From contig CAZBFM010000001.1 in NCBI GenBank assembly GCA_964491455.1, forward strand, positions 279,425-343,424: DNA of 64,000 nt. Reading direction: 5' to 3'. Position numbers and translations under genes: made by a program. This stretch comes from an uncultured Candidatus Saccharibacteria bacterium. Lineage in GTDB: Bacteria; Patescibacteriota; Minisyncoccia; 2-02-FULL-40-12; GWA2-44-9. Below the pieces are notes generated by a model, which saw nothing but the letters and a program-made list of their open reading frames with translations, was not told the DNA's origin and searched no databases. Shown here piece by piece: positions 7,356 through 64,000 of this stretch (position 1 is its first letter; each line of letters starts with the position of its first letter).

Positions 7356-8408
7356 TCATGAACGATACGACTCCTCCTGACGCGCCAAAAGTATAGGTCG
7401 TAGTTGTTCAAGATTTTCGAGCACCATGCCACACCCACGAACAACTGCAGTTAGCGGATCCGCAACCGGCTGAACGAGTAATTTTGTTTCTCGCGCTATA
7501 AGCGTATCAAGGCCTCGGATGAGAGCTCCTCCGCCCGCAATTGCTATGGGGCGGTTTATCAAATCAGCAGTGAGCTCTGGTGGCGTTTCCTCAATCGTGT
7601 TTCTCACGGCGCGCACGATGCTTTTTATAGAACGACTCATCGCACCGCGTATTTCCTGCGACGTGATCGATAGCTCCCGAGGCAGTCCCGACACGAGATC
7701 ACGTCCTCGCACCGGCAACTCCAGCTCCTCTTCCAGTGTCCATGCCGAGCCGAGGGACACTTTTACATTTTCACCCGTTGCTTCACCGATGAGTAAGTTT
7801 TTCTCTTCACGCAAAAAACGAATAATATCATCAGTTAGCTTATCTCCAGCGATTCGCAAAGAACGAGATGAAATCCGTCCTCCCATCGAGATAACGGCAA
7901 CCTCAGTCGTTCCACCTCCAATATCAACAATCACATTGGGTACTGCATCTTGGATCGGCAATCGCGCGCCGAGAGCAGCTGCCATTGGCTCCTCGATGAG
8001 ATACACCTCTCTGGCGCCAGCGTTATAGGTTGCGTCCTGCACAGCTCGTCGTTCAACCTCGGTAACCCCCGATGGGATTCCGATGACTACACGTGGTCGG
8101 GGCATAATCGACCACGCGCCCGTATGTACGCGATCGATAAAATACTTCAGCATCTGCTCAGTAACCTCGAAATCAGATACGACTCCGTTCACAAGCGGCC
8201 TCGTCACGGTTATGTGTCCCGGCGTCCTACCTATCATGCGACGAGCTTCAGTTCCAATGGCAAGTATCTTTCCCGTTTTTTGGTTAAGCGCCACGATGCT
8301 TGGCTCATTGATCACGATGCCCTTGTCGCGCACATACACAAGGGTGTTCGCAGTACCCAAATCAATACCAATGTCTTTTGACCACATTCCAAAGAGATTC
8401 TTGAACAT
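7356..8408 (-). CDS. mreB: Rod shape-determining actin-like protein MreB
   Basis: 350 aa. Actin-fold ATPase motifs (…IGIDLGTANT…, …DIGGGTTEVA…). Confidence 0.9.
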   Translation of the reverse strand: MFKNLFGMWSKDIGIDLGTANTLVYVRDKGIVINEPSIVALNQKTGKILAIGTEARRMIGRTPGHITVTRPLVNGVVSDFEVTEQMLKYFIDRVHTGAWSIMPRPRVVIGIPSGVTEVERRAVQDATYNAGAREVYLIEEPMAAALGARLPIQDAVPNVIVDIGGGTTEVAVISMGGRISSRSLRIAGDKLTDDIIRFLREEKNLLIGEATGENVKVSLGSAWTLEEELELPVRGRDLVSGLPRELSITSQEIRGAMSRSIKSIVRAVRNTIEETPPELTADLINRPIAIAGGGALIRGLDTLIARETKLLVQPVADPLTAVVRGCGMVLENLEQLRPILLARQEESYRS

Positions 8409-34396: not shown

Positions 34397-34456
34397 CTGA
34401 TCATGTCTCCTCGTTATTCTAAAACAAGAACGTATTGTGAATGGACCCAGAATGTC

Positions 34457-34529
34457 CGCCCTGCTGGATTCGAACCAGCGACCTTCTCCTTAAAAGGGAG
34501 CAGCTCTACCAACTGAGCTAAGGGCGGTT
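34457..34529 (-). tRNA. tRNA-Lys (anticodon UUU). 3' CCA is not genome-encoded (ends …A-CA).
   Basis: Reverse complement folds as a cloverleaf. Acceptor CCGCCCT/AGGGCGG, U8, D-stem GCTC/GAGC, anticodon loop CUUUUAA, 5-nt variable loop, T-arm GCTGG-TTCGAAT-CCAGC, discriminator A. Confidence 0.8.
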
Positions 34530-34576
34530 ATGAACCAGCATAAAATACCACGTTTTTAACGTGCCTTCAAGGCGCG

Positions 34577-36196
34577 CTACATATTGAGCGCACGACGAAT
34601 AAGGGCTTTCAATTCGTCATCTGAGGTGGACACCACACCGGTTGTCGTAGCTTGTGGCTTCTCTTTGATTTCAACGGCTCGTCCATTGAATCCCACAGCG
34701 CCCCCCTTCAGCGCATCGAGACTGGCTGTCTGCTGCGGCGCAGGTCGAGGACCCGAAGCTTGTAACGGCGGTCGCTGATGCGAACCTTGCCCCTGAGGAC
34801 GCTGTGGTTGTTGCATCGGTCGTGCGACGGACTGGGATGGGAATGGACTATCCCGGCGCGGCGTTGCTGGCCTATCACTCGCTGCTCGGGGCACGTATTG
34901 AGGCTGTTCAAGTGGCGCACGCCATTTTGCGATCGCCTCTTCCACTTCCGCTCGCGGCCGAGCGTACATAGTGCGCGAGTATTCGACCACTTCATCCCGA
35001 GTACTTTGCTCGAGCTTCTTTGGCGTGTCCATCGTCATAGCAGAAAACGCATGACTCGTGACTCCATCGATCATTAATTTGAGATACATCTGACGGAATC
35101 CAAGGTTCACAATGTCGGTTGCCATAAATTCAGGGGCGAATTCTTTCTCCATCAACTCAGCATCTTCTGCTCCAATGCGAAACGATATGATCGTTCCCAC
35201 ATTGCCGAAGACCGCGTCGGCAACCTCTTCCGCAAGCTGCTTAATATATTGATGAGCTACAATCAGAGACAAATTGAATTTACGCGCTTCGGAGAGGATG
35301 TTCGCAAATGAACCCGTTGCAAAGTTTTGGAACTCATCAACAATCAACGTGAAGTCCGCACGTTCATGCTTTGGTATATCGACGCGCGACATCGCCGCAA
35401 GCTGAATCTTGGTGATAATCATCGCACCAAGAAGTCGAGATGCGTCTTCACCAATACGTCCCTTTGAAATATCCACGAGGATTATTTTGCGCTGATCCAT
35501 GGCTTCGCGCATATTGAAGGTAGACCGCTCCTGCCCAACTAGATTGCGAATGAGAGAGTTGGAAACAAACTGACCAACCTTGTTTTGTATAGCAGCTGTT
35601 GCCTCTGACGCAAACTTGTCAGTATATTTCGCGAATTCTTGTGTCCAGAATGCTTTCACTTCCGGATCCGTCACTTGGTCAACTATCTTCTTTCGATACT
35701 CCTTATCTGCCAACATTCTATTGATGCCTAGGAGCGTAGATCCGGGAGCCTCGAGGAGAGCGAGGATCGTATTATTGAGGATGTATTCCATACGAGCCGA
35801 CCACGCATCGAGCCAAATCTTTTTGAACACCGCCATCATGCCATCAGCAACGAGATGACGCTGATCAAAGCTCACACTCTCCATGACATTAAATCCAACT
35901 GGAAACTGCATGTCGGCAGGATTAATAAAAATGACATCTTTGACACGCTCAGGAGGGATATAATCCAATAAATCATATACAGGATCTCCGTGCGGATCCA
36001 TAAAACAGACACCTCTGCCATCGCGAATATCTTGAATGGCAAGCATCTTTAGGAGCTCCGATTTGCCCATACCAGATTTTCCGATCACATACATATGCCT
36101 GCGACGATCATCGAGCTTGATGCCGAAATGCTGAATCGCATTTCGAAATTCAGTTTGACCGAAAAGCACTACATTGTTTTCTGGTTCGAATGTCAT
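34577..36196 (-). CDS. Soluble type-IV-coupling-protein-like ATPase (VirD4/TraG/TraD family, FtsK-HerA superfamily)
   Basis: 539 aa, no TM. HMYVIGKSGMGKSE (Walker A), DPHGD, LIVDEFQNF (Walker B) and VAHQYIKQL in T4CP order. A Pro/Gln-rich tail of about 120 aa at the C-terminus. Confidence 0.55.
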   Translation of the reverse strand: MTFEPENNVVLFGQTEFRNAIQHFGIKLDDRRRHMYVIGKSGMGKSELLKMLAIQDIRDGRGVCFMDPHGDPVYDLLDYIPPERVKDVIFINPADMQFPVGFNVMESVSFDQRHLVADGMMAVFKKIWLDAWSARMEYILNNTILALLEAPGSTLLGINRMLADKEYRKKIVDQVTDPEVKAFWTQEFAKYTDKFASEATAAIQNKVGQFVSNSLIRNLVGQERSTFNMREAMDQRKIILVDISKGRIGEDASRLLGAMIITKIQLAAMSRVDIPKHERADFTLIVDEFQNFATGSFANILSEARKFNLSLIVAHQYIKQLAEEVADAVFGNVGTIISFRIGAEDAELMEKEFAPEFMATDIVNLGFRQMYLKLMIDGVTSHAFSAMTMDTPKKLEQSTRDEVVEYSRTMYARPRAEVEEAIAKWRAPLEQPQYVPRAASDRPATPRRDSPFPSQSVARPMQQPQRPQGQGSHQRPPLQASGPRPAPQQTASLDALKGGAVGFNGRAVEIKEKPQATTTGVVSTSDDELKALIRRALNM

Positions 36197-47249: not shown

Positions 47250-47418
47250 AGTATATCACGCGAGTGAGTTGGAAACACGATATAATCATCCGCATCAAAT
47301 ACGCAACGGTAGGCGAAATAGCACGTCCCTAACAATGAGCGTGCCCTCACGATCTCGAATCAAACTAACGCAAGAATGGACTCATATCATCTACTCAAGC
47401 CCTCCCCCATTTACAGAT

Positions 47419-47880
47419 TCAATTCCCATGGCACTTCTTAAACCTCTTACCACTCCCGCAAAGGCAGGGTGGATTTTGCGCTAAAAAATTTTTGTTAGCA
47501 GGAAACAGGTTTTCCGGAAGCTGGGAAAGGTCAAACCATTTCATTTCCGAAAATTTTTCCGGTTCCATTAAAGAAGGTTGTCCGCTAAAGCTGGTTGGCT
47601 TGGTATGAACAGTGATGTAATGCTTATTTTCAGCTTCGTAAACGTCGCTGGTGACTCCCAAGATTTCTATATCTTTTACCTCTATCCCCGCTTCTTCCTT
47701 GGCTTCTCTTTGGGCAGATTGAAGGAAGCTTTCTCCGTATTCTATATGGCCGCCCGGCGGGCACCAGGTGCCGTTGGCGTGTTTGGATTTGCGTAGAAAA
47801 AGGAGCAGCTTGCCGTTTTCTACAATGTAAACGCCAATTGCTCCTTTGGGCCTAAGTTTGTCTTGGTCTTCATTTCCCAT
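47419..47880 (-). CDS. NUDIX hydrolase with C-terminal SEC-C zinc-binding motif
   Basis: Nudix box [27 protein letters not shown]-terminus [15 protein letters not shown]. The start is probably MGNEDQ (ATG 8 nt before the secA stop). The track ORF extends to 47925. Confidence 0.7.
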
Positions 47881-50542
47881 GGCACTTCTTGTATTTCTTT
47901 CCAGAGCCACAAGGGCACGGATCATTACGCCCGATAGTATCTGATTGTAGGTTCGGATTGGAAGCGTGATCGTCTTTCGATGTCAGAAGTTGTGTTGCAG
48001 GATCTTCCGATAGGTTAGGGCGACTCTCGACTCCATTTCGAAGCGATGCGGGCCCCGGAGCTACCTGGACCTTAAAGATAATGCCTGCAACGCGAGAAGC
48101 GAGAGTAATCGCAAGCGAACCATACATTCGTTGCGCTTCGATCTTGTACTCGACTAAAGGATCGCGTTGCCCATACGCACGCAATCGTACAGACTCGCGA
48201 AGATGATCCATTGCTTCGATATGGTCCACCCATAGATCGTCAATCGTGCGTACCACAACCGCTCTCTCGATCTGTCGCATCTGCACAGCCCCCATACGAT
48301 CTTCGTGCAGCGCATATAACCGACGCATCTCCACGACAAGATAGTCAGTGAGCTCATCTGCATCGCGATACTCTTTTGCTAGAAGATCCGGAAAGAGCGA
48401 ATCAGGAAATGGCGCGATCGAACGGAGGGTATCGACGATCTCTCGAATACTCAATTCGCCTGTCTCTTCGTTTCTATGCGCTCGCACAATGGCCTGCAGC
48501 TCGCCCTCCAAATATCCCAGGACTGTCTCGTGGATGTCTGGCGAAGAAAGTATCGATCGACGAATGCCATACATGGTTTCACGATGTTTATTCATGACAT
48601 CGTCATACTCAAGTACGTATTTCCTAGAATCGAAGTTATGACCCTCAATTCGACTCTGCGCTTGTGCTATTGATCGGGATACGATGCTGTTCTCGATAAC
48701 ATCCTCATCGGTGACGCCCAGGGTATTCATAATATTCTTCAAGCGATCTCCACTAAATATTCGCACAAGCTCATCTTCAGTGGAAACATAAAACTGGCTT
48801 GCCCCAGGATCTCCCTGGCGACCCGCGCGACCACGGAGCTGATCGTCAATGCGCCGCGCTTCATGACGCTCCGTGCCAAACACGCACAATCCGCCAAGTT
48901 CTCTCACCTCGCGCGCCTCATCCTCATCGATCGGATTACCACCAAGAATGATATCAACGCCGCGCCCAGCCATGTTCGTTGCAACCGTCACAGCGCCCCT
49001 ACGTCCAGCCTGCGCTATGATTTCAGCTTCTTGTTCGTGATTCTTTGCGTTTAGCACCTGATGCTTTACGCCTATCGACGCCAGCAACACCGAGAGCATT
49101 TCATTTTTTTCAATAGAAACGGTTCCCACAAGCACTGGTTGCCCTAGCTCGTGACGACGCTTCACTTCATGTGCGAGTGCCTTGAATTTTCCCAATTCAC
49201 TCTTATAGATGCGATCGGGCAAATCCTTTCGCAAGAGCGGTTTATGCGTGGGGACGACGACTACATTGAGGCTATATACTTTGTGAAACTCCTCTGCAGA
49301 TGTGCGCGCAGTACCCGTCATTCCGGAAAGCTTTCCATAGAGCCTGAAATAATTTTGGAACGTTACCGTTGCCAGCGTTTTGCTTTCGCGTTGGATGAGA
49401 ACGCCTTCTTTTGCCTCCACTGCCTGGTGAAGACCGTCAGACCATCGGCGTCCCGGCATGAGGCGCCCCGTGAATTCATCCACGATAATAACCTCATTAT
49501 CCTTTACGACATACTCTTTGTCTCGACGGAAAAGCACATGCGCACGTAACGCCTGCTCAAGATGATGCACATATCGAGCCCCACCCTCCTCATACATATC
49601 AGCGATACCAAGACGCTTTTGTATCTTTTCAATACCATCGTCGGTAATACTTACTGCTTTTAGCTTCTCATCGATGGTATAGTCCTCACCTTCTTTGAGT
49701 ATTGGCACTGCACGCGCGAATGACGAATATAAAGCGCCCGACTCTTCATCAGGAGCAGAAATGATAAGAGGGGTGCGCGCCTCATCGATAAGGATTGAGT
49801 CGACCTCATCAACGATTGCAAATGCATGCGGAGTCACTTGTCGCTGAGACATATCTTCCAATCTTGGCGCCATATTATCGCGAAGATAGTCAAACCCATA
49901 TTCATTATTGGTTCCATACGTAATATCCGCTTGATATGCTTCGCGCCGACTCACCGGCCGAAGAAACTCATGAACGACTCGAAACGATCCAGTCTCATCG
50001 CGCTCATGATCACTCTCCGCGAGATCGGCAGGCTTCACATGGGAGGAGTCATAGATGTACGAAGCCTCATGATTGAGCACGCTCACTGTTAGGCCTAAGG
50101 CATCATAAATCTGACCCATCCACGTCGCATCACGTCGACTGAGGTAATCATTCACAGTAACAACATGCACCCCATTCCCCGATAACGCATTGAGATACGC
50201 TGGAAGCGTAGCAACCAATGTCTTACCTTCACCGGTCGACATTTGCGCGATTGCACCAGAGTGCAGCACCATACCTCCAATGAGTTGCTCATCAAAATGT
50301 CGCTTACCAGATTTGCGCAGTGATGCCTCACGAACTGCAGCAAACGCCTCAGGCAGCAGCTCATCTAGTGTCGAACCAGTCCGCAATCGCTCCCTAAAAT
50401 CAATCGTTAACGAGCGGAGCTCGTCATCAGATAACGATCGCATATGAGCCTCGAGAGCATTTATTTTTACAACTGAACTCGCGTACGATCGGATGATACG
50501 CGCATTTGCGTCAGGTAAAAACTTCGATAGAAATTCAAACAT
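47870..50542 (-). CDS. secA: Preprotein translocase ATPase SecA
   Basis: 890 aa. DEAD-like motor, PPXD, HSD/HWD, and a C-terminal SEC-C zinc finger [15 protein letters not shown]. Confidence 0.95.
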
Positions 50543-52766: not shown

Positions 52767-54137
52767 ATGCCTCGTGCGCTCACCCTTCTAGCATCTGATT
52801 TTATTGCATTTTACGGTGCGCTTGGTGCCACGTTGTGGCTTCGCTATGGCAACTCGGAATTTATATCACAGTGGAGTGGTCACGTAATTCCTTTTTCGTT
52901 ACTACTAATTGTGTGGTTTTTCGCGCTCTATATTACGAATCTGTACAACGTTCAATTTATGCGTAATGATCGCGAGTTTTTTGAGCGACTCACGCAAGCC
53001 ATGCTATTCGCCACTGTTATTTCAATACTTTTTTTCTATTTTATTCCATTTTTTGGAATCACTCCAAAACGTAATTTGTTCTTCTTTTTGCTTTTACTTG
53101 CCGTGGGAATGTGGAGTATTCGGTTTTTATACAACAAAGTGCTCGCTGGTAGTGCCAAGAAAAACGTTCTCATCGTTGGCATAACTAAGGAGTCACTGGA
53201 GCTCGCCGAGCTCATTACTCATAATCCGCAATTTGGTTATAGTATTCGATCCCTGGTCAACCTCACTCCTGGGTCGTCATCGCTCATCACGCAAACACCT
53301 ATCGGATGGCACATCATACAGAGTCTGAACGAGGTTGACGCCCACATCGTTCGCGAGAACATCGATACGGTTATTATCACTCCTGATGCCTATCAAGCCC
53401 GAGAAGTGGTACACCTTTTTTACTCTACGATATTTCGCCAGATCAATTTTATAACATTGGCCACAATCACGGAGCAACTTACTGGCCGTATACCGCTTGG
53501 ATCAATCAATCAAGCATGGTTTTTGGATAATTTGGCGGAAGGGGCAAAGAAGTCGCTCAGCCCTGTGAAGCGAATCGTCGATGTGATACTGGCGAGTGCT
53601 CTCGGATTGCCGACGCTACTTGCGCTTCCCTTTATTGCTGCGCTCATTCGACTCGACTCTCGTGGTCCCGTATTCTTTCGTCAGGCGAGAACGGGTCAAG
53701 ACAGGAAAACGTTTTCAATAATTAAATTTAGAACGATGCAGATCAACGCAGAGAGCGCGACTGGTGCCGTTTGGGCATCCCACAATGATACACGTATCAC
53801 GCGCATCGGTTCATTTCTTCGTAAGACGAGGATCGACGAACTGCCTCAACTATGGAATATACTCCGTGGAGACATGTCTCTCGTAGGCCCTCGCGCCGAA
53901 CGACCTGAATTTGATACACAACTCGCGCAGCAAATCCCATTCTACAATGAGCGTTACCTCATCAAGCCAGGACTATCCGGTTGGGCTCAAATTAACTACC
54001 CCTATGGAGCATCGATCGATGACGCGACTCAGAAATTGCAGTACGATCTCTACTATATTAAGAATCGCTCTCTGGTACTTGATCTCGAGATCATCCTGAA
54101 AACGATAAGCATATCTCTTCGTCGCTCCGGCCGCTAA
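52767..54137 (+). CDS. Polyprenyl-phosphate hexose-1-phosphate transferase (WbaP/WcaJ-like initiating sugar transferase)
   Basis: 456 aa. N-terminal TM bundle and C-terminal bacterial sugar transferase domain (…RFLRKTRIDELPQLWNILRGDMSLVGPR…). Confidence 0.8.
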   Translation: MPRALTLLASDFIAFYGALGATLWLRYGNSEFISQWSGHVIPFSLLLIVWFFALYITNLYNVQFMRNDREFFERLTQAMLFATVISILFFYFIPFFGITPKRNLFFFLLLLAVGMWSIRFLYNKVLAGSAKKNVLIVGITKESLELAELITHNPQFGYSIRSLVNLTPGSSSLITQTPIGWHIIQSLNEVDAHIVRENIDTVIITPDAYQAREVVHLFYSTIFRQINFITLATITEQLTGRIPLGSINQAWFLDNLAEGAKKSLSPVKRIVDVILASALGLPTLLALPFIAALIRLDSRGPVFFRQARTGQDRKTFSIIKFRTMQINAESATGAVWASHNDTRITRIGSFLRKTRIDELPQLWNILRGDMSLVGPRAERPEFDTQLAQQIPFYNERYLIKPGLSGWAQINYPYGASIDDATQKLQYDLYYIKNRSLVLDLEIILKTISISLRRSGR

Positions 54138-56419
54138 TTCTGCACGCCAAGTCTTGTCAAAACCTCGTCTGCCTTCCGTACGAATTCTTTTTGCGACGCA
54201 ATCGCGGGAACCGCCAGCGCCCGTCGAATAGTGTCGACAACTTTTTGACTATCATTGAGATCGGCATACGCATTAATCAATTGCGACCAATAGTCTGCTT
54301 GCTTTGGGAATGATGCGACCAAACGCTCGAGCATGGCAATCACATTTTTTGCGTCACCTAATTGAGTAAAAATCTGAACCATACGATTACCATCCTGCTC
54401 CGTCATTGCGTACCCCTTCGACAAAGCACTGTTCATGGAGCGTAACGCCTCCTCAACTCCTTGGACGCTATTTTGCGATGCAGCAATTTGATACTGCACA
54501 GTACCGATATACCAATACGTAATGCCCACGTCAGGGTTCAAGTTCGCTGCCTTTTGAAACCATTCGAGTGCTAACTTCGGCTGGTTCTTGTTTAAATAGG
54601 CCTGCGCAACTTCGTAATAGGTCCTTACAAATGTAGGACTGATATCGAGTGCCTTCATCGACATGCGCAGAGCTTCATCATTGTAGGAATCTATTTTCTC
54701 GCTCTTTCCGAGCGTAATATAGAGTCGCGAAAGATAGAGATACGGCAAATAATCGTCCGGATTTTCAATTGTATTCATCTTTACGTCATCAATTGCGCGA
54801 AGTGCTACTTCCTTGAAATTCGGGACTTTACTCACATCAGTTGCACCAGAAATTTCGAGCACATATTGTGCATATCGGTGTCTGTATTCATACCTTCCAG
54901 GAGCGTCTACGTCGATTGCTTCACGAAACTTGTTGACCGCCGTCACCCAATCCCCCTTATATCCAGCAACAATAGCGCGCGTGCTTGCGTAATTAGCAGT
55001 AGAAGGGCGGACGTTGGTGCTGTACACAGCAATGAGGACAATGAATGGGACAATCACGGCGTAGAGTACTTGGCCCGCCGTCCAGACGCGCGCCCTATTA
55101 CTGATCATCGCCACCTGAGGAGCATCAAGTCCACGTAGAGACACGTGCACCACAAAAGCGAGAATCATAAAGAAAGAAAGAAAATTTGCTGACGTGTCAA
55201 AAATAAAACAATTGTGAATGATATAGGCAATCGTCATTGACGTGAGGCCAATGCCTAGAACCCTAGCATCAGAAGCCTCAGCCATAAACGATCGATACTG
55301 ACGGAATGATGCCACGAACAGGGAGAGGTACGATATCAATCCAAAGAGCCCCATGGTAACCGCAACTTCAACAAACATATTGTGAGCACGATCGAAAAAT
55401 GTTTCCGAACCGGGTCCGGTAAAGAACTTGGGATTAAAGTGCTTACTGAATGGGATATTAAAATTCTCCGGCCCCCATCCAAGCAACACCGTCTTGGGGC
55501 TCTCGATCCATCCCTGATACCCAGCGGTCCAAGCCCAGAAACGAGTTTGCACCGTAAAGGTGCTACTGGAAAAATCAGTAACACGCCTCAAATAGGGAGA
55601 GCTCTGAACAAATGACGTCTGTCGTAACATCATTGCCAGAAACACAAACACCACAATTGCCGTTACACCAGCAAGAAGTCCATTTCTAGCAAGACGACTC
55701 CTATTTAAAGACCCCCAGAGTAGCGCCCACGTTAACCCCCCAGCTACGACCCCGATGAGAGAGCCGCGAACCGCCGTTGTTGCAACTGCTAGTACCATTA
55801 CGCCCCCCGAAGCAGCAAACCAACGCGCCATTCTTGGCGACGTACGCTTCATGCTAGCAAGTGAAAAAGCCAAAAAAGCAATGAGGATTTGGTACCCCGC
55901 GAATAATGCTGGATTTCCGATCGTGCCAAATGGACGCTGCCGACCCCCAGATCCCAGAATGAACGTCCAGTCCGTTTTCTGAAGAAATCCATATATCGCC
56001 GAACTAAACCCAACCACAATCATGAGATTCAGGAGGACTTGCCAATCTCGTCTCGTTCGTAGCACCGATATGGTAATTATGTAGAAAACAAAATAGTGCC
56101 AAAACGTGAACAAGCCACCCATGCGCTCGAGCGTACCCCAGAAGCTCTGTAAAAAAGCGACGGAGGTAAACGTCGTAACGGTAAACGCCACTGCAAATGA
56201 CAAAAATGCCCACGTAATGGGATGTGACTTCGGGACATACGATCTATCCCTCCAAATCAAGAGCAAATACAAGGCGGTCATAATCTGAACGACACTCCGC
56301 AGGACAACAACCTTACCGAAATGAAACGGCGACATGTGCTGACTAAAAACAACCAACGGGATGAAGGCGCTAGCGTACACCAACCATTTGAGAATTTTCG
56401 CGAGCATAGATTCGTTCAT
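54134..56419 (-). CDS. O-antigen ligase/polymerase-like (Wzy_C) polytopic membrane protein fused to C-terminal TPR repeats
   Basis: 761 aa, at least 12 TM in the N-terminal 470 aa. The C-terminal 290 aa form TPR-like helical repeats (…AQAYLNKNQPKLALEWFQKAANLNPD…). Confidence 0.5.
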   Translation of the reverse strand: MNESMLAKILKWLVYASAFIPLVVFSQHMSPFHFGKVVVLRSVVQIMTALYLLLIWRDRSYVPKSHPITWAFLSFAVAFTVTTFTSVAFLQSFWGTLERMGGLFTFWHYFVFYIITISVLRTRRDWQVLLNLMIVVGFSSAIYGFLQKTDWTFILGSGGRQRPFGTIGNPALFAGYQILIAFLAFSLASMKRTSPRMARWFAASGGVMVLAVATTAVRGSLIGVVAGGLTWALLWGSLNRSRLARNGLLAGVTAIVVFVFLAMMLRQTSFVQSSPYLRRVTDFSSSTFTVQTRFWAWTAGYQGWIESPKTVLLGWGPENFNIPFSKHFNPKFFTGPGSETFFDRAHNMFVEVAVTMGLFGLISYLSLFVASFRQYRSFMAEASDARVLGIGLTSMTIAYIIHNCFIFDTSANFLSFFMILAFVVHVSLRGLDAPQVAMISNRARVWTAGQVLYAVIVPFIVLIAVYSTNVRPSTANYASTRAIVAGYKGDWVTAVNKFREAIDVDAPGRYEYRHRYAQYVLEISGATDVSKVPNFKEVALRAIDDVKMNTIENPDDYLPYLYLSRLYITLGKSEKIDSYNDEALRMSMKALDISPTFVRTYYEVAQAYLNKNQPKLALEWFQKAANLNPDVGITYWYIGTVQYQIAASQNSVQGVEEALRSMNSALSKGYAMTEQDGNRMVQIFTQLGDAKNVIAMLERLVASFPKQADYWSQLINAYADLNDSQKVVDTIRRALAVPAIASQKEFVRKADEVLTRLGVQN

Positions 56420-56434
56420 TGCAAGTATCTTATT

Positions 56435-57700
56435 TCATTTATCACAGCGGGGCAATATAGACTGATACCTCTTAATCATAGCTCTTGTTTGTTGCGCAGC
56501 GGAAAAACTCATCTCGATTCGGCGCAACCCCGCAAGTCCCATTGCACGACACAGCTCTGGACTCCGCAGAAGCCGTGAAACCTGCATTGCAACACTCTCC
56601 GTGTCGAATGGGTTCACAATGACACCTGTAACATCATGCAGAACAATCTCTGGAGTACCACCGAAGCACGTGCCAATAACCGGCTTCCCCGCTGCCATCG
56701 CCTGCATCGCCATCAGAGGTGCTGGATCCAAATATATTGAAGGTACAGCAACGATAGTCGCTGCAGAGAACAATGCTGCTCGATCTCGACCGTGGAGAAG
56801 ATCAATACAACGCAACGAGCCCTCAACACCACGTTGCCGTGCGTATCGCAGGACTGAATCTCGATATGGACCAGCTTCGATCGCCATCACAACTAGCACA
56901 TCAGGAAAGTGCGCAATAATTCCGGGCAACGCATCAATGAGCACCTCGGTACCCTTATCTTGCATAGCGCGCCCCCCAAACAAAATAATCGGATGATCCC
57001 CGAGATCAAGTTTTTGGCGAAGCACATGTACATCTTCGATACTGGCTTGAAATTCACGAACATCGACACCATTGTAAAACGTTTCAGCATGAGCAATTCC
57101 ATTTTGTCGCAATGCCTCATTGAGCGTCTCCGATACAGAAAATACACCGCTCGCATATTGTAGTGATCGACGAATGCACCACTTTCGAATCGGGTTGTAT
57201 GCCTTGCCAACCTGACGAATTGTGAAGAATGTAGGAACAAAATAATTATATGCCACATGCACACTCTTCTTCGTCGGATCAATAAAATGATAAAGCCTCG
57301 TGTATGCAAAGCTCAACGTATCATGGAGTGTAATAAAGCACGGGACGCCAATCGATCTCACCCATCGAATCAGTGCAAAAGAAAAATGTTCATGTACGTT
57401 ATGTGCATGCACGATGTCGGGTTGTAGTTTCTTGAGGAGAGATATACTGGCACCCCGAATGAACGGGTTATACACCGAGAGATAGGACCGCACAAATTGT
57501 GAGCGTGCCGGAGAATAAATGCGATGTACAGATATTCCTTGATACTCTGTATCTCCAACGCTCTCGAGACGCTGCGTTGCGGTTACCACATGGACCGTGT
57601 GACCTTCGGCCATCATGCCTAAGGCCATATCAAGAGCTACCTGCCCGGCGCCGCCAACGCTCTCGGGTGCAAACGAATCAGTGACGTAGACAATCTTCAT
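56435..57700 (-). CDS. Glycosyltransferase family 4 (GT-B, GT1 domain)
   Basis: 421 aa, with a C-terminal …FGGTPEIV… motif region. Confidence 0.8.
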   Translation of the reverse strand: MKIVYVTDSFAPESVGGAGQVALDMALGMMAEGHTVHVVTATQRLESVGDTEYQGISVHRIYSPARSQFVRSYLSVYNPFIRGASISLLKKLQPDIVHAHNVHEHFSFALIRWVRSIGVPCFITLHDTLSFAYTRLYHFIDPTKKSVHVAYNYFVPTFFTIRQVGKAYNPIRKWCIRRSLQYASGVFSVSETLNEALRQNGIAHAETFYNGVDVREFQASIEDVHVLRQKLDLGDHPIILFGGRAMQDKGTEVLIDALPGIIAHFPDVLVVMAIEAGPYRDSVLRYARQRGVEGSLRCIDLLHGRDRAALFSAATIVAVPSIYLDPAPLMAMQAMAAGKPVIGTCFGGTPEIVLHDVTGVIVNPFDTESVAMQVSRLLRSPELCRAMGLAGLRRIEMSFSAAQQTRAMIKRYQSILPRCDK

Positions 57701-58317
57701 TGCTTTTTGATAATCACAAAACTATCAGAAAAAACGCGACGCGGTGTAACCCAATGGTCCATCCGGATCAGAGAGCGATCCAGCAACCGCAAAAACGCAC
57801 GCTTCAAGCGGGGTTGCTTTTGATACGGATCGAAAAGAAGGAATTTTATATATGATGACGTGAGAGCCCAAAATCCACCATACGCACCCTTTTCCACGAC
57901 GACACACTGATGACTACTAGCAAGCGCGCTAAGTCCCTCGGGGGTATACCGAAAATAATCCCCTGGATCCGAATGAATTGGCTGCGTAAATGGCGCAGTA
58001 ATAATTGCATGTCCGCCTCGCCGCAACACCCGAGCGATTTCCTTCATGAGCGAAGTAGGGCTCGGCACATGTTCAAAGACTTGATTACACAAGACCGTAT
58101 CAAAGGAGCCGTCTTCAAATGGCATTGCCAGCACGTCGCCCGCCACATCAACGTTCCCACCAGCGACCGCATCCAGACAAATATAGGAAGTCGCACTGCG
58201 AAGCACTATGGATTTATATTTAGCAGCAGCGCCACCGCCAGCATCAAGCGTTTGCCCACGAATATATTTCGCAGCATACTCTACAAGATCGCGTGTTGTA
58301 TGAATGCTAGACGACAT
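57697..58317 (-). CDS. Class I SAM-dependent methyltransferase
   Basis: 206 aa. GxGxG-like SAM motif (…TLDAGGGAAAKY…) and Methyltransf_11-like fold. 4-nt overlaps on both sides. Confidence 0.7.
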   Translation of the reverse strand: MSSSIHTTRDLVEYAAKYIRGQTLDAGGGAAAKYKSIVLRSATSYICLDAVAGGNVDVAGDVLAMPFEDGSFDTVLCNQVFEHVPSPTSLMKEIARVLRRGGHAIITAPFTQPIHSDPGDYFRYTPEGLSALASSHQCVVVEKGAYGGFWALTSSYIKFLLFDPYQKQPRLKRAFLRLLDRSLIRMDHWVTPRRVFSDSFVIIKKQ

Positions 58318-59657
58318 TATTCATTAGCTTCACTCGCAAGTCGCAAGAGCAATCGTCGAACATACAGGAACGCGATCGTGTGCGCAATCGCATACCATGC
58401 AGTGACGAGACCAATAGTCCCCCAAGGACCGAAAGCGCGAATCGCCATAAGTCCCAATGGCACCCCGACAAGTAAATTAAAAGTATGAATCATGATCGAA
58501 ACGTGAACCTTTTGAATGGCGCGCAACATCGATCCCAAGCCAATACCCAAACCCATGAAAATTCCGTATGGAATCAGCGCGTATACATAGTGCACGCTCT
58601 GCGCAAATTGAGATCCGTAAAAGATGTGGAATGCGATAGGAGCGACGAGAGCAGCTCCGAGTGTCAACGCGGTCGAGATGCCAACCGCGTACATCGTAAC
58701 TCGAACAAAATTCCGAGATAAGCGCGCAACACCTTGCGTTTTCATTTTAGGAAACTCAACGTTTAGGAGCGTCCCAATGGGACCTAAAAATCCGAGCGCG
58801 AGATTGATATACGCAAAGGCAAGTTTAAAAAAGGTAACGTCTGCCGCAGTTACATAGATCCCTGTGAGAAGAATGGGGAGAATATTATAGAGGTTTGAAA
58901 GATTTCTATCTACTGCGATCCAAAAGCTGTACCGAAGATACGTTCGCACCGGTGCGGTGCGCGCAGAGAGCATTAGCTCGCGAATCCGAGGCAAGACACC
59001 GAAGTCTCTTTGAAGCCCCCGCCACACCACAATCGACGCGCAGCAAAGAATACTCGCTCCCAATAAGTGTCCCGTCACAATACCTCCAACACCCAAGCCT
59101 GCGATCACAAACGAAAGCGCGAATGTCGTCCGAAGCATCTGATCGCTCAGGCCTAACATGGTCATCTGTCGAATACGCCCAACAACTTGAGTTCCGATAG
59201 ACGCGAAAGAATACGCTGTCGTAGAAACGATCGAAGCGCAAATGACGACCGAAGCGAACCATCCAATCGCGGATGTTCCGTACAGGTGCATGGAAATGAA
59301 AGGAGCCAATGCCGCACCGCATAACGTCACAAAACTCATAATAACGGTGATCTTCACCAAAAATGCTAAAGCTGAGCGTATTTCATGCTCATCCCTACGC
59401 GCATATGCCTCACCCAATATCGTGGTGACAGCGTCTTGAGCGCCCACACCTAGAAATATAGAAATGAACCCCGCGAGACTAAATGTGAGTGCATACACAC
59501 CGAATGCCTCAGGCTGAAGCACGCGCGCCATGATGATACCGGCAATCGCCTGGAAGACATTCCCAAACATACTCCCGGCCTGAAGGATTGCCGTATTCCT
59601 AACAAATGTATGCGCTCGAAAGTATGAAATTTTCTCACGTATCCAAGCTATTGACAT
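58317..59657 (-). CDS. Polysaccharide flippase (Wzx/MOP-superfamily)
   Basis: 446 aa, about 12-14 TM, with the Polysacc_synt-like N-terminus. Confidence 0.65.
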   Translation of the reverse strand: MSIAWIREKISYFRAHTFVRNTAILQAGSMFGNVFQAIAGIIMARVLQPEAFGVYALTFSLAGFISIFLGVGAQDAVTTILGEAYARRDEHEIRSALAFLVKITVIMSFVTLCGAALAPFISMHLYGTSAIGWFASVVICASIVSTTAYSFASIGTQVVGRIRQMTMLGLSDQMLRTTFALSFVIAGLGVGGIVTGHLLGASILCCASIVVWRGLQRDFGVLPRIRELMLSARTAPVRTYLRYSFWIAVDRNLSNLYNILPILLTGIYVTAADVTFFKLAFAYINLALGFLGPIGTLLNVEFPKMKTQGVARLSRNFVRVTMYAVGISTALTLGAALVAPIAFHIFYGSQFAQSVHYVYALIPYGIFMGLGIGLGSMLRAIQKVHVSIMIHTFNLLVGVPLGLMAIRAFGPWGTIGLVTAWYAIAHTIAFLYVRRLLLRLASEANE

Positions 59658-59692: not shown

Positions 59693-62600
59693 CTAGAAAA
59701 GTGATTGAATGTACTCCCATTTCAACACCCCATCATACGTAAACTCAACAACATGCTCTCCCCCATGCACAGGAAGTCCGTGGAATAGATAGTTTGTCAT
59801 ATATGACTGCACTGGTCGTCCATCGATGGTGATTCGCCAACCAGGGAGATTCGACTCAGAGAAGACAAGCCAACGATCATGAGAGGTCTTGGTAGTGAGC
59901 CGAAGATATCCGTCACGATACGCGTCAATGGCAATAGAGTCTGAGGGAGTAGGCCGATTCTTGAATGAATCGCAATCAGCGCATTCGATGAATGTAGTGT
60001 TGGCGAAATTAGTGTTTGACTCGATGATTGTTTTGAAATTCTTCTCTTCATCAGTCTCGGATACAAAAGAGACGTTTCGAGCAAAGTAGATGCGAGGCAT
60101 GACCGTCTTGTTCTCATAGAGATAGATAGGAATGTTGAACCGCGTTGATGCCACCTCCTCGATCAGCTGCAGGCCAGGAGTTGCGGGGAGCTCGTATGCG
60201 GAGATGAGATACTTCACGTTGAGCATGGAAAGAACGGGGAGGCGGAGGGTGAAACGAGAGAGCTTTTCACCGAGTGGGATGTCTTCGTTTGCAAGCGACG
60301 TATAACGCTGGCTCACCTCACTCCCCACAAATGCGAGCACGCGCTGCCCTCGTCGTGGTGCCATCGGTTCGTAGCCGTCAATGGTTGCAATGCCGCGTAG
60401 AAGGCCAGTATTAGGCATCAGCGAATCAATGCCATACATCATCGCATCTCTCGAAGCACCCTCATGAATAGCTGATACACGCTGTGAACCTGCAGCACCA
60501 TAGAGAAAGCTAAACGTGCGAAAACTCATTGCATCATCGCCTCTCAAAAGAATCGCGTCCGCGATGTGCGGCGACGAAGAGAGGACTGAAGACCGCGCAA
60601 ACGTGTGCTCCATCATCCCCGACGCACCAAGCAATGCACACGAAGCTATCACTGATGCTCCGGTAAATACCTGCGCATCTCTCGCATACCGAGCCACTAT
60701 GTACACCACAGCAATTGATGCTAGCGCAATCATGGAACTTGCATCTCCGAGTGAAAAATTATCAAACGAACTTCTCACCATTCGCTCAATAAGTGCGTGG
60801 TAGTACTCAAGAGGAAGTCCCGTGGTGCCTTGATACATCCGTTCCGTAAATAGTTGTTGCAGGAATCGAATACTACCCTCACCTGCCACCGCAAATATCA
60901 ATGTTGCTGTCATGGCAACACCAAGCATTGCATTAAACAGGCGCCCCGCATACAACTGAATGCTCGCCCGCCCACTTTCCCAGTGCTCCATCGTCCACTT
61001 CATCCCATAACCAGCCAACATTGCCATCGCAAAATTAAGAACAAACGTCCATCGAGCCGGCCCACGAAAATACTCCAATACGGGGAACTGATGAAGTAGC
61101 CAAAATATAGGAGAGTATTTGAATGACGTCAGAATCGCACCAACGCTCAACAGCGTAAAGAACCTGACACTGGATTCGCTCTTGTACATCTTTGTGACGC
61201 CAATGAGTGCGAATATGAGACCAAAAATACCAATGTACGGTAAAAACTCACCGGAAATACCATATCGAAATGAAAAATGTGGAAGTATAAACTTTATCAA
61301 ATCCAACGGTGTCGCAGCATCGACGCTCGCCTGCGCAAGCGTAAGTCCGCCAATCCTCGTTGAAAGCGGGGTGAACACTGCCATATACAAAAATTGAGGC
61401 AGACCAATTATCAGTGCCGCCACGAATACGCCAATAACACGCCCCCCATCCTTCATTGAATTTCTTAAACTCTTTCCTTCACGATGAGCATCGCATTCCA
61501 ACCACACCCAATACAGCGCAGCAACTATGAGTGCCATAATCACGAATTGCTGATGCGCTCCCAAAAATGACAATCCAATGAGCACCGAATATAGAAGCGC
61601 CACACCCCAGGCCCCTCTGGATGCGCTAAGCGCCATGAGCAATGATACTGGCAAAACATATACCGCAGAAAGAACAGCAATGTTGCCCAACCAATGTGTC
61701 GTAAATTGACCCAATGTAAATGTACCTGCAACCAACAAGCTCACATATCGACGCGAGAATAACTGTCGAGCAAATAGATAACTAAAATACGCCGCCAGAA
61801 ATACAAAGATCACTAGAAGCGCGTTATAACTTTCAGAAATCACACGATAGATTGGATGAAAGAATCCCCACTGAAAAGACGCCGGGATCGGAAATCCAGA
61901 TAGTATCCCGGAAGCCCACTTTGCCCCTCTGGTTGTTGCGTCTGGATAAAAAACCCCAACCGTATCGCCATCAAAGAAAATAAACCTCTGGCCGAAGTAC
62001 ACACCAAGACATACGAGTATAATTACCGCGAACAACACAAGCCTACGCCCTAAGGGATCCTCGTTATAGAAACCTAAAATGCGTTGAATCCAAACTCGCA
62101 GCAACTCCCAAAGCGTATATATGTATGATCCAATCGATACGCGGGATTCGATAGGTGCAGCATAGGTAATAGGCACCTCACGGATGTCCAAACCTCGAGC
62201 CTTGGCGATTGCAAGCATCTCGATGTCGAACCCCCACCGTAGAACTGTAAGCGCTGAGAATATATCATTTGCCAAACTTCCTCGGATCATCTTTAAGCCC
62301 CGCTGAGAATCAACAATATTCCAGCCCATAACGCATCGAATTAATCGCTTTGCGAGAAACCCCAACACCCCTCGTCCCCGGGGTTGCCCACTAATGACAG
62401 CATTGGGTGCAGCAGCAATGATCAGGTCCGCGCCCTCCCGGTATTTTGGCCAGAACTTATCCAGCTCCATCACGCTAATCTGCAAGTCTGCATCTATGAA
62501 CAGTCGACAGTCTCCCTGGGCTGCAAGCATGCCCGTCCTAACGGATGCCCCCTTTCCCCGATTCGACGCATGGGATGTAATGTGAACATGTGATAGATGC

Positions 62601-62779
62601 AAGCCCTCAACTACTGATCTCGTATCGTCGATAGATCCGTCATCAACTACAATAATTTCACACGCCAGATTCTTCGTTTTGAAGTAATCAGTGACGGCAT
62701 AAATTGTGCGAGCAATGCCCTTCCCTTCATTCAGGGCGGGTATAATTACTGACGTCAGATTTGGTAGTGATGATTTCAT
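59693..62779 (-). CDS. Fusion glycosyltransferase: N-terminal GT2 polyprenyl-phosphate glycosyltransferase (GtrB/CsbB/DPM1-like) joined to a YfhO-family GT-C membrane domain and a C-terminal soluble domain
   Basis: 1028 aa. aa 1-235 are GT2 (…VIIPALNEGKGI…VVDDGSIDDT…DADL…). About 12+ TM follow. The C-terminus …LVFSESNLPGWRITIDGRPVQSYMTNYLFHGLPVHGGEHVVEFTY matches the YfhO-family C-terminal signature, from my memory of the family consensus. Confidence 0.6.
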   Translation of the reverse strand: MKSSLPNLTSVIIPALNEGKGIARTIYAVTDYFKTKNLACEIIVVDDGSIDDTRSVVEGLHLSHVHITSHASNRGKGASVRTGMLAAQGDCRLFIDADLQISVMELDKFWPKYREGADLIIAAAPNAVISGQPRGRGVLGFLAKRLIRCVMGWNIVDSQRGLKMIRGSLANDIFSALTVLRWGFDIEMLAIAKARGLDIREVPITYAAPIESRVSIGSYIYTLWELLRVWIQRILGFYNEDPLGRRLVLFAVIILVCLGVYFGQRFIFFDGDTVGVFYPDATTRGAKWASGILSGFPIPASFQWGFFHPIYRVISESYNALLVIFVFLAAYFSYLFARQLFSRRYVSLLVAGTFTLGQFTTHWLGNIAVLSAVYVLPVSLLMALSASRGAWGVALLYSVLIGLSFLGAHQQFVIMALIVAALYWVWLECDAHREGKSLRNSMKDGGRVIGVFVAALIIGLPQFLYMAVFTPLSTRIGGLTLAQASVDAATPLDLIKFILPHFSFRYGISGEFLPYIGIFGLIFALIGVTKMYKSESSVRFFTLLSVGAILTSFKYSPIFWLLHQFPVLEYFRGPARWTFVLNFAMAMLAGYGMKWTMEHWESGRASIQLYAGRLFNAMLGVAMTATLIFAVAGEGSIRFLQQLFTERMYQGTTGLPLEYYHALIERMVRSSFDNFSLGDASSMIALASIAVVYIVARYARDAQVFTGASVIASCALLGASGMMEHTFARSSVLSSSPHIADAILLRGDDAMSFRTFSFLYGAAGSQRVSAIHEGASRDAMMYGIDSLMPNTGLLRGIATIDGYEPMAPRRGQRVLAFVGSEVSQRYTSLANEDIPLGEKLSRFTLRLPVLSMLNVKYLISAYELPATPGLQLIEEVASTRFNIPIYLYENKTVMPRIYFARNVSFVSETDEEKNFKTIIESNTNFANTTFIECADCDSFKNRPTPSDSIAIDAYRDGYLRLTTKTSHDRWLVFSESNLPGWRITIDGRPVQSYMTNYLFHGLPVHGGEHVVEFTYDGVLKWEYIQSLF
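59723..60252. repeat. 530-bp perfect direct repeat, copy 1 (3' end of the GT2-YfhO gene)
   Basis: Identical to 62785-63314, offset 3062 nt. It encodes the identical last 176 aa of the two adjacent paralogs; the supplied ORF track shows identical 106-aa and 66-aa shadow ORFs in both copies. Confidence 0.85.
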
Positions 62780-64000
62780 CGCAACAACACCCCATCATAC
62801 GTAAACTCAACAACATGCTCTCCCCCATGCACAGGAAGTCCGTGGAATAGATAGTTTGTCATATATGACTGCACTGGTCGTCCATCGATGGTGATTCGCC
62901 AACCAGGGAGATTCGACTCAGAGAAGACAAGCCAACGATCATGAGAGGTCTTGGTAGTGAGCCGAAGATATCCGTCACGATACGCGTCAATGGCAATAGA
63001 GTCTGAGGGAGTAGGCCGATTCTTGAATGAATCGCAATCAGCGCATTCGATGAATGTAGTGTTGGCGAAATTAGTGTTTGACTCGATGATTGTTTTGAAA
63101 TTCTTCTCTTCATCAGTCTCGGATACAAAAGAGACGTTTCGAGCAAAGTAGATGCGAGGCATGACCGTCTTGTTCTCATAGAGATAGATAGGAATGTTGA
63201 ACCGCGTTGATGCCACCTCCTCGATCAGCTGCAGGCCAGGAGTTGCGGGGAGCTCGTATGCGGAGATGAGATACTTCACGTTGAGCATGGAAAGAACGGG
63301 GAGGCGGAGGGTGAGCACTCGTAACTTCTCTTGCAGCGGCATCGATGCGTACGCCAATGAATCGCCCGTTGTTGCTCGCTCGCTCCCCACCAATGCTATC
63401 GTTCGCGCAATACGCCGGGTCATGATATTCGAAAAGCCATCAATACTCGAAGCACCATACTGCATGCCAATATTGGGAACCATAAGATCGCGCTGAAATG
63501 CAATGGAATCTGAAATTGAATACCTTCCTGAAAATGGCTGGTGCAATTTCTGGTCGACAGCGGAGCCAGAAAGAACACTCAAATACCTCCCATCTGTAGC
63601 CTGTATGTATGCGGCGAGTGAAGGAGCGCTAGAAATGACTGACGCATGAATAATCTGCGTTCGATTTGGATGCATCATGAAGAGCGAACACGCCGTAAGT
63701 ACTAGTGTCGCAACGCGTGCAGGTCCATCAAAGCCGCGAACCGCTACGCGTCGTACGATGAGAATTGAGACACCAAGAGACGCAAACCCAACGAAAAAAA
63801 TGGAATTGAATGGATCTACATTGGCAATGAGCGCATCGAAAAGAGATGAAATGGAGTTGTGATAATGTTCTACTGAAAGTCCGCCAGCACGAGATGCAAG
63901 AAAGTGCTCATCAAAATATGCGTAGACATATGATAATAGTTGCGTTCGTACAGGGATAACAATCAAACGGACTACAATCGCGCCGAACATCAACACACCA
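62776..64000 (-). CDS. YfhO-family membrane glycosyltransferase paralog (5' end beyond window)
   Basis: TM-rich region homologous to the membrane domain of the 59693-62779 protein, with a C-terminal domain 100% identical to it. A 4-nt ATGA overlap with the downstream gene start. The first in-window Met at 63996 is probably internal. Confidence 0.6.
   Translation of the reverse strand, partial: GVLMFGAIVVRLIVIPVRTQLLSYVYAYFDEHFLASRAGGLSVEHYHNSISSLFDALIANVDPFNSIFFVGFASLGVSILIVRRVAVRGFDGPARVATLVLTACSLFMMHPNRTQIIHASVISSAPSLAAYIQATDGRYLSVLSGSAVDQKLHQPFSGRYSISDSIAFQRDLMVPNIGMQYGASSIDGFSNIMTRRIARTIALVGSERATTGDSLAYASMPLQEKLRVLTLRLPVLSMLNVKYLISAYELPATPGLQLIEEVASTRFNIPIYLYENKTVMPRIYFARNVSFVSETDEEKNFKTIIESNTNFANTTFIECADCDSFKNRPTPSDSIAIDAYRDGYLRLTTKTSHDRWLVFSESNLPGWRITIDGRPVQSYMTNYLFHGLPVHGGEHVVEFTYDGVLLR
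62785..63314. repeat. 530-bp perfect direct repeat, copy 2 (3' end of the upstream YfhO-like paralog)
   Basis: See copy 1. Upstream of the repeat the two genes diverge to about 40-50% amino-acid identity. Confidence 0.85.

Follow-up and report, generated by a model that had tools for sequence, protein, structure and literature searches.

Probable recurrent gene conversion confined to a C-terminal module of tandem YfhO-family glycosyltransferases: evidence from a Candidatus Saccharibacteria surface-glycan locus and its relatives

Gene conversion between paralogs is well known in bacteria, as in tuf genes, rRNA operons, and bab genes. Conversion between the duplicate tuf genes of Salmonella is RecA-dependent, produces concerted evolution, and has tracts bounded by the limits of homology (PMC5485169). 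In Helicobacter pylori, babA, babB, and babC show segmental identity, and gene conversion among them yields chimeras (PMC4552749, PMC3444412). We describe here a clear new example of this well-known process, in two adjacent genes, designated A and B, in a 64,000-nucleotide (nt) stretch of DNA ("the window") from an uncultured Candidatus Saccharibacteria bacterium, a small-genome organism from groundwater. Both genes encode YfhO-family glycosyltransferases, and their 3' ends form a perfect direct repeat of 530 nt. In the transmembrane glycosylation systems of Gram-positive bacteria, CsbB is the GT-A enzyme, GtcA the flippase, and YfhO the GT-C enzyme (PMC5836110, PMC8035078); the function of YfhO is known only for homologs from Bacillus, Listeria, and Staphylococcus (PMC5836110). 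The repeat in the window is very probably the product of repeated, homology-dependent gene conversion between old tandem YfhO paralogs, which keeps their C-terminal module identical.

As with tuf, two paralogs are near-identical within one genome and the limits of the tract are the limits of homology. The tuf genes, however, are converted over the whole gene and as distant copies, whereas the conversion proposed here, read from sequence, would affect a 3' module of about 177 codons in adjacent genes whose products are otherwise 22-31% identical. The bab genes offer a second likeness, since they too are surface-related paralogs in which a near-identical segment accompanies a diverged specificity part and intragenomic recombination takes place. 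Unlike those adhesin genes, which occupy separate loci and give antigenic or functional variation, A and B are tandem glycosyltransferase genes, and the outcome is homogenization rather than diversification. Like the CsbB/GtcA/YfhO systems, the locus places a GT2 domain of the polyprenyl-phosphate sugar synthase type next to a YfhO transferase in a surface-glycan cluster; unlike them, it has GT2 and YfhO fused in A, and a second YfhO paralog, B, with no GT2 domain of its own. The Bacillus subtilis protein has, after its large extracellular region, a final transmembrane helix that A and B do not have.

Self-comparison of the 55-64 kb region, with base-by-base extension, found the two copies of the repeat identical at all 530 positions at an offset of 3062 nt (coordinates in Table 1), as a preliminary description of this DNA had claimed. 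Mismatches, which would have meant ordinary old paralogy, were looked for, and there were none. Either side of the repeat, agreement falls to background within about 10 nt, and flanking 30-nt windows at the same offset agree at just 4-17 of 30 positions. No second long repeat accompanies the 530-nt pair in the 64-kb window, and the self-comparison found no inverted repeats in 55-64 kb. A perfect run of this length has a chance probability of 10^-82 to 10^-123 at 59-70% identity, the level of the non-homogenized relatives introduced below. The open reading frames (ORFs) and Pfam matches bear out that the copies are the 3' ends of adjacent, otherwise diverged YfhO paralogs; both genes, and so both copies, lie on the minus strand, a small correction to that description. 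The tract codes for residues 843-1019 of A. It had been described as the last 176 residues of both proteins, and the C-terminal location holds, although A continues for nine unshared residues and B for two. Upstream of the tract, the reported 40-50% amino acid identity applies at its lower end to the nearest 60 residues (40%), while across the preceding 200 residues identity is 28%. Each tract copy also contains an identical ORF of 106 amino acids in an alternative frame (59797-60117 and 62859-63179, minus strand), a trivial by-product of the duplication for which there is no evidence of gene status.

Relatives of the locus were gathered by exact-protein look-ups and by scans of collections, in which the genome and metagenome scans gave four loci each, mostly duplicates. 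These recovered eight independent loci of the tandem B-A type, in which the order of genes is conserved; L001, L003, and L005 derive from the Hainich groundwater time series of metagenomes. The set compared consists of the window, L001 (= L002, L006), L003 (= L007, L010), L004 (= L012), L005 (= L008, L011), L009, L014, L015, and L017, the last being the protein pair P0027/P0028. That pair was also the only further one found when the 150 best family representatives were screened for identical tails. Relatives are annotated as belonging to metagenome-assembled genomes (MAGs) of Patescibacteria, Saccharibacteria, or Paceibacterota. Two further loci have an A-type fusion with no adjacent B, and a protein 100% identical to A (P0001) is found on a 652,729-bp NCBI contig.

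Within-genome comparison of A to B divides these loci into two groups. The tract is exact over 530 nt (100%) in the window and over 519 nt in L017; in L001 it runs for 535 nt with two mismatches, both inside the first 11 nt (99.6%); in L005 an exact core of 467 nt is followed by 55 nt at the 3' end that are not shared. The L009 match, exact for 127 nt, ends with its contig; L009 and L017 are the more distant of these lineages. DNA identity of the tract within genomes was 100%, 99.6%, and 94-100%, against 70-78% between genomes. The pairs in L003, L004, L014, and L015 are not homogenized, their tract regions being about 58-68% identical or undetectable by blastn, and their longest in-register exact run does not exceed 12 nt. 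Between genomes the tract is far from identical: codon-aligned DNA identity is 77.8% for the window and L001 and 70% for the window and L005, and the tracts of the four other homogenized lineages are 22-45% diverged from that of the window. Over the 240 codons upstream, codon-aligned DNA identity is 57-80% for orthologs and 36-41% for paralogs. At the amino acid level, the upstream parts of the paralogs are 22-31% identical. The preliminary claim of gene conversion is upheld by these comparisons, in which the tract is identical within five genomes and diverged between them, and by the trees, whose topology switches at the tract. In neighbor-joining trees the upstream region gives an A clade and a B clade with bootstrap values of 87-100. 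In the tract there are no A and B clades, and A pairs with B by genome, with a bootstrap value of 100 each in L001, L005, and L017.

Synonymous sites make the same point. Synonymous divergence (dS) in the tract between the window and L001 is 1.17, with a ratio of nonsynonymous to synonymous divergence (dN/dS) of 0.095, compared with 0.12-0.13 upstream. A and B of the window do not differ at any of 126 synonymous sites, for a dS below 0.024 (95% bound), and the last conversion there can be placed, on these sequences, within about 2% of the window-L001 divergence. We give virtually no credence to extreme purifying selection acting with no transfer of sequence. No part of the protein family is better conserved than the module, with a dN/dS of about 0.1, but constraint cannot make synonymous sites co-vary within genomes, and the tract tree groups sequences by genome. 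Because all 126 synonymous sites agree within the genome while dS is about 1.2 between genomes, selection alone cannot explain the identity. Diversifying selection on the module was considered as well and rejected, dN/dS being about 0.1 as it is upstream; the ratios indicate a module under ordinary purifying selection and not fast-evolving.

It is very unlikely that a single recent event, whether a conversion or a partial duplication that replaced the tail of B, occurred in this genome only. Zero differences in 530 nt are what a very recent event would leave, yet the same state, with the same 5' limit, is present in four other lineages whose tracts have diverged from this one as given above. 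Independent single events in each would be unlikely, because in non-homogenized pairs exact runs do not go beyond 12 nt. Near-zero divergence in every homogenized lineage instead implies that conversion is frequent relative to mutation and has happened many times. The earlier phrase "recent gene conversion" is therefore right as to conversion and wrong in implying one recent event.

An assembler might have produced the second copy, or its perfect identity, through collapse, duplication, or a chimeric join. An exact repeat of 530 nt exceeds short-read length, near-identical segments can be merged, and the L009 contig (JAGOSO010000005.1, from a Paceibacterota MAG; match at 7865-7991) breaks exactly 127 nt into the repeat. 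Such repeats do disturb assembly, then, and the preliminary warning of a collapse risk was sound; the break looks like one in a k-mer-127 graph, and it truncates the A gene of that MAG. We nevertheless hold an artefact to be highly unlikely here. The L001, L005, L017, and L009 contigs come from different assemblies, and each has its own repeat, diverged from the others, at the same place. L001 and L002, assembled separately, are identical across both genes, including the two mismatches at the edge. Both reading frames are intact, the ATGA junction of B and A is kept in L001 and L003, and the unshared tails suit their gene context.

In each of the five homogenized lineages, the start of identity precedes the codons CGC CTC CCx, which encode R-L-P, by 2-10 nt; in L005 it lies 8 nt inward of the edge in the window. 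A sliding comparison of the non-homogenized pairs shows paralog identity climbing from 15-30% to 40-85%, with the step exactly at A residue 843. Because pairs that are not homogenized step at the same residue, the 5' edge is the start of the conserved module, the upstream limit of paralog similarity in every lineage. At the 3' side, identity stops no more than two codons from the last sense codon of B in three lineages (the window, L001, and L017); in L005 it stops about 55 nt further in. In those three lineages the tract therefore covers all of the sequence that is alignable as DNA between the two genes. The edge mismatches of L001 and the shortened 3' end of L005 look like the edge erosion that is expected of homology-limited conversion.

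The 5' edge also carries a sequence motif (Table 1), which may also be written CGCCTCCCC. An alternative that we judge unlikely is that conversion is programmed by this site, the C-rich motif, G-quadruplex-like on the other strand, initiating breaks or stalling from which conversion runs to the end of the gene. In five lineages the distance from the edge to CGC CTC CCx is about 10 nt at most, and these codons are invariant despite six-fold degeneracy, while other invariant Arg and Leu columns use three to five codons. On both strands of the 64-kb window there are only six G-run motifs like GGGGAGGCGGAGGG. Yet the most conserved peptide block begins with the residues that the motif encodes, and homology alone explains the edge. 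Quadruplexes of two tetrads are weak, and the core CCGCCTCCC shows no over-representation in the window. The neighboring genes include no associated nuclease or recombinase, identity in L005 starts 8 nt further in, and L001 is mismatched there. The same nine-base core was considered as a Chi-like hotspot, which was rejected, as it is found in the 64 kb only at the two tract edges and is not over-represented. In the antigenic variation of Neisseria pilE/pilS, gene conversion is initiated at a strong three-tetrad G-quadruplex upstream and draws diversity from silent cassettes. The present locus is similar in having a G-rich motif beside the converted tract; it differs in that the motif is weak and lies inside coding sequence.

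Recurrent, domain-restricted concerted evolution in five lineages is strongly supported by these comparisons, and the process of repeated homology-dependent conversion may be envisaged as follows. A and B would be old tandem GT-C paralogs of the YfhO family in a Patescibacteria surface-glycan locus, with their last 177 or so codons encoding a discrete beta-sandwich module, presumably extracytoplasmic. Non-reciprocal copying between A and B within the chromosome, presumably mediated by RecA, would reach only as far as the genes align as DNA, halting on the 5' side at the conserved block R-L-P-x-L-S-M-L-N-V-K-Y and on the 3' side at or near the end of gene B. The membrane domains upstream, together with the GT2 domain of A and its putative synthesis of a lipid-linked sugar donor, would be free to diverge, and the two enzymes would probably put different decorations on the same polymer. 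A pair that has once escaped from homogenization would not be expected to resume homologous conversion. With no exact run above 12 nt, the non-homogenized pairs appear to be locked out of it already, and since escaped pairs are not expected to return, the distribution of the two states suggests that the homogenized one is old and has been lost several times. In L003, homogenization was lost through replacement of B together with the GT2 domain of A, with a breakpoint near A residue 287-289.

A further correlate is base composition. The difference in GC content at third codon positions (GC3), tract minus upstream, is +0.08 to +0.22 in the homogenized lineages (window, L001, L005, L009, L017) and -0.06 to +0.05 in the others, a contrast with a Mann-Whitney p of 0.016 in which three of the five homogenized lineages are related and so not independent. 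GC-biased gene conversion has been proposed for bacteria (PMC4450053), and the rise in GC3 is consistent with a possible footprint of it.

Several points weigh against recurrent homology-limited conversion as just set out, or against parts of it. The sequences are assembly-level only, a de Bruijn assembler can merge near-identical paralog segments, and perfect identity could be slightly overstated. The gene for RecA lies outside the window. The GC3 contrast comes from few lineages, some of them non-independent. The evidence on the direction of conversion conflicts: the tract is closer to the A gene of L003 than to its B gene, but the outgroup L004 points the opposite way, the B gene and GT2 domain of L003 have been replaced, and the tract tree is without A and B clades. 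The putative acceptor-binding role of the module is read from resemblance of fold. Finally, neutral homology-limited conversion predicts that edges erode inward, yet five lineages that differ by dS greater than 1 all keep the 5' edge to within about 10 nt of one codon, and the synonymous conservation of CGC CTC CCx hints at an extra constraint beyond the simple model. A directed process, in which the 5' motif serves as a fixed start of conversion so that both enzymes always share an acceptor module and change their specificity in step, we regard as improbable.

The part of the proteins that is homogenized corresponds closely to a structural unit. In the AlphaFold2 (AF2) model of A, the tract consists of a short helical linker and a beta-rich domain, residues 855-1015, whose per-residue confidence (pLDDT) is 84-96 in the full-length model and 88.9 when it is modeled alone. 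The proximal soluble region, residues 725-852, is not homogenized. What had been called homogenization of the C-terminal soluble domain is accordingly correct for the distal beta-rich module with its short helix, and not for the whole soluble region from about residue 725. The best structural match to the module is the soluble part of AftD (PDB 6wbx), a mycobacterial GT-C arabinofuranosyltransferase with soluble carbohydrate-binding modules; AftD is much larger, has several such modules, and shows 15% sequence identity. From this modeled fold, the module probably binds the acceptor glycan. We infer that both enzymes recognize the same acceptor through it, and that their membrane cores use different lipid-linked donors.

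Protein A scores 88.8 bits against PF00535 and 35.0 bits against PF09586, and A and B both exceed the cut-off of 28.5 bits for the latter, in alignments that cover only profile positions 756-823 of 835. Full-length B orthologs have 788-808 residues. An exhaustive HMMER search found 8324 representatives related to the C-terminal YfhO region at E <= 0.001, nearly all of them proteins of about 800 or about 1030 residues with the region at the C-terminus. The GT2-YfhO fusion architecture, at about 1010-1060 residues, is seen in about 7 of the 150 best family representatives. The nearest matches to the GT2 domain are ArnC, DPMS, and GtrB by sequence and ArnC, GtrB, and DPMS by fold in Foldseek, with target-normalized TM-scores of about 0.6 to ArnC and GtrB. 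None of the NCBIfam equivalog models for GT2 reached its cut-off, the top one being PgfS at 50.8 bits against 500. In the YfhO part, the AF2 model has about 13 long helices at residues 242-723, and no solved structure is detectable by sequence. The predicted first loop after the first transmembrane helix contains D270-G-D272, invariant among A orthologs and replaced by N-G-D in B orthologs. Gene A appears, by its domains, to combine in one polypeptide two steps of the three-component glycosylation pathway.

Together with the genes downstream, A and B form a surface-polysaccharide cluster, and the downstream gene order is kept in L001, L003, L004, L005, L014, and L015. The flippase gene of the window is followed by one methyltransferase gene, where a tandem pair (214 and 205 residues) is present in L001, L003, L004, and L014; the one missing from the window is the first member of that pair. 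L005 and L017 lack the GT2 part and have a separate methyltransferase gene between B and A. Compared with L001 and with the window at 61900-64000, L003 (7578-10870) has another B gene and another GT2 domain, and similarity restarts at about A residue 287-289, the junction of GT2 and YfhO. The genes upstream of B vary among the loci. On these comparisons, the glycan locus is a mosaic.

Such variation raises the question of whether the direct repeat is a switch, in which recombination between the copies deletes or amplifies the 3062-bp unit holding the GT2 and membrane domains of A, one glycan decoration goes heritably on or off, and the identity of the copies is kept because the switch is useful. 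At about 500 bp, direct repeats recombine efficiently to give deletions, and related loci do vary at this place, with a methyltransferase gene in place of GT2 in L005 and L017 and an A gene only in L016. A deletion is irreversible, however, and makes no true switch, and the retention of both genes by five lineages speaks for selection against their loss. The predicted product, in which the B N-terminus, the tract, the A tail, and the flippase gene follow one another, was absent among the retrieved loci and proteins, a comparison that is insensitive and in which rare variants are undetectable. No site-specific recombinase was found among the neighbors in the window or in related loci, and the window holds only the two tract copies, with none that could be silent cassettes. 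We find a switch quite unlikely.

Table 1. Features of the YfhO locus and the adjoining glycan cluster, in window coordinates.
Feature	Position	Strand	Evidence
Gene A, 1028 aa, N-terminal GT2 (GT-A) fused to YfhO-type multi-pass membrane glycosyltransferase	59693..62779	-	ORF, Pfam, AF2 model
Gene B, YfhO paralog, extends beyond window end; 407 C-terminal aa visible	62776..64000	-	PF09586, 39.1 bits
Repeat copy 1, homogenized tract of gene A (codons 843-1019)	59723..60252	-	Exact 530-nt match and translation
Repeat copy 2, homogenized tract at 3' end of gene B	62785..63314	-	Exact 530-nt match
Unshared nine-residue tail of A, KWEYIQSLF	59696..59722	-	
Unshared B tail, Leu-Arg-stop (LR), with B stop overlapping A start as ATGA; 3' homology limit of B copy	62776..62784	-	
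5'-edge motif copy 1, codons L-R-L-P; coding strand CCCTCCGCCTCCCC, plus strand GGGGAGGCGGAGGG	60236..60249	+	
5'-edge motif copy 2	63298..63311	+	
Beta-sandwich module of A (aa 855-1015), wholly inside tract	59735..60217	-	
GT2 domain of A (aa 10-173), polyprenyl-phosphate sugar synthase type	62261..62752	-	Pfam, nearest solved sequences, Foldseek
Membrane (GT-C-like) core of A, about aa 242-723	60611..62056	-	AF2 helices, invariant columns
Cluster downstream of A	52767..59657	mixed	Pfam
Wzx-like flippase	58317-59657	-	Pfam
Methyltransferase	57697-58317	-	Pfam
GT4	56435-57700	-	Pfam
Wzy_C-TPR protein	54134-56419	-	Pfam
Bac_transf, initiating transferase	52767-54137	+	Pfam

Elsewhere the window holds housekeeping genes, among them those for an aminoacyl-tRNA synthetase, SecA, and SecDF. 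A 52-nt direct repeat of 77% identity (47418-47469 and 47869-47920, spacing 451 nt) is flanked by a P-type ATPase gene and the 3' end of the SecA gene (minus strand). At 34454-36196, a tRNA-Lys(UUU) adjoins a 539-residue protein with TrwB/VirD4-type coupling-protein and HerA-like domains; this region may be left over from a mobile element, or may belong to a DNA-uptake or secretion system. Of the 44 ORFs with at least 200 residues, the minus strand carries 42, and across 1-64000 the GC skew stays negative. All of the window seems to belong to a single replichore, in which gene-strand bias is strong.

The locus is a clean case from nature of conversion that affects a single structural module in two enzymes. 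Its points of interest are the sharp, conserved boundary, the lineage in which it occurs, and the modular function of YfhO enzymes. At least three to five lineages of Patescibacteria show the pattern; the genomes of these organisms are tiny and poor in repeats, and a genetic system for them is lacking. The pattern indicates that homologous recombination in these uncultured bacteria is active enough to erase all divergence of a 0.5-kb tract over long periods. In practical terms, the repeat breaks short-read assemblies and may mislead orthology assignment and phylogeny for these glycosyltransferases. Were the directed process true, the arrangement would be a domain-synchronizing device in genome-reduced Patescibacteria. 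For the YfhO family, the pattern marks the beta-sandwich module as a functional unit separable from the membrane core, and it raises the hypothesis that the module provides shared acceptor recognition while the membrane core may determine donor specificity.

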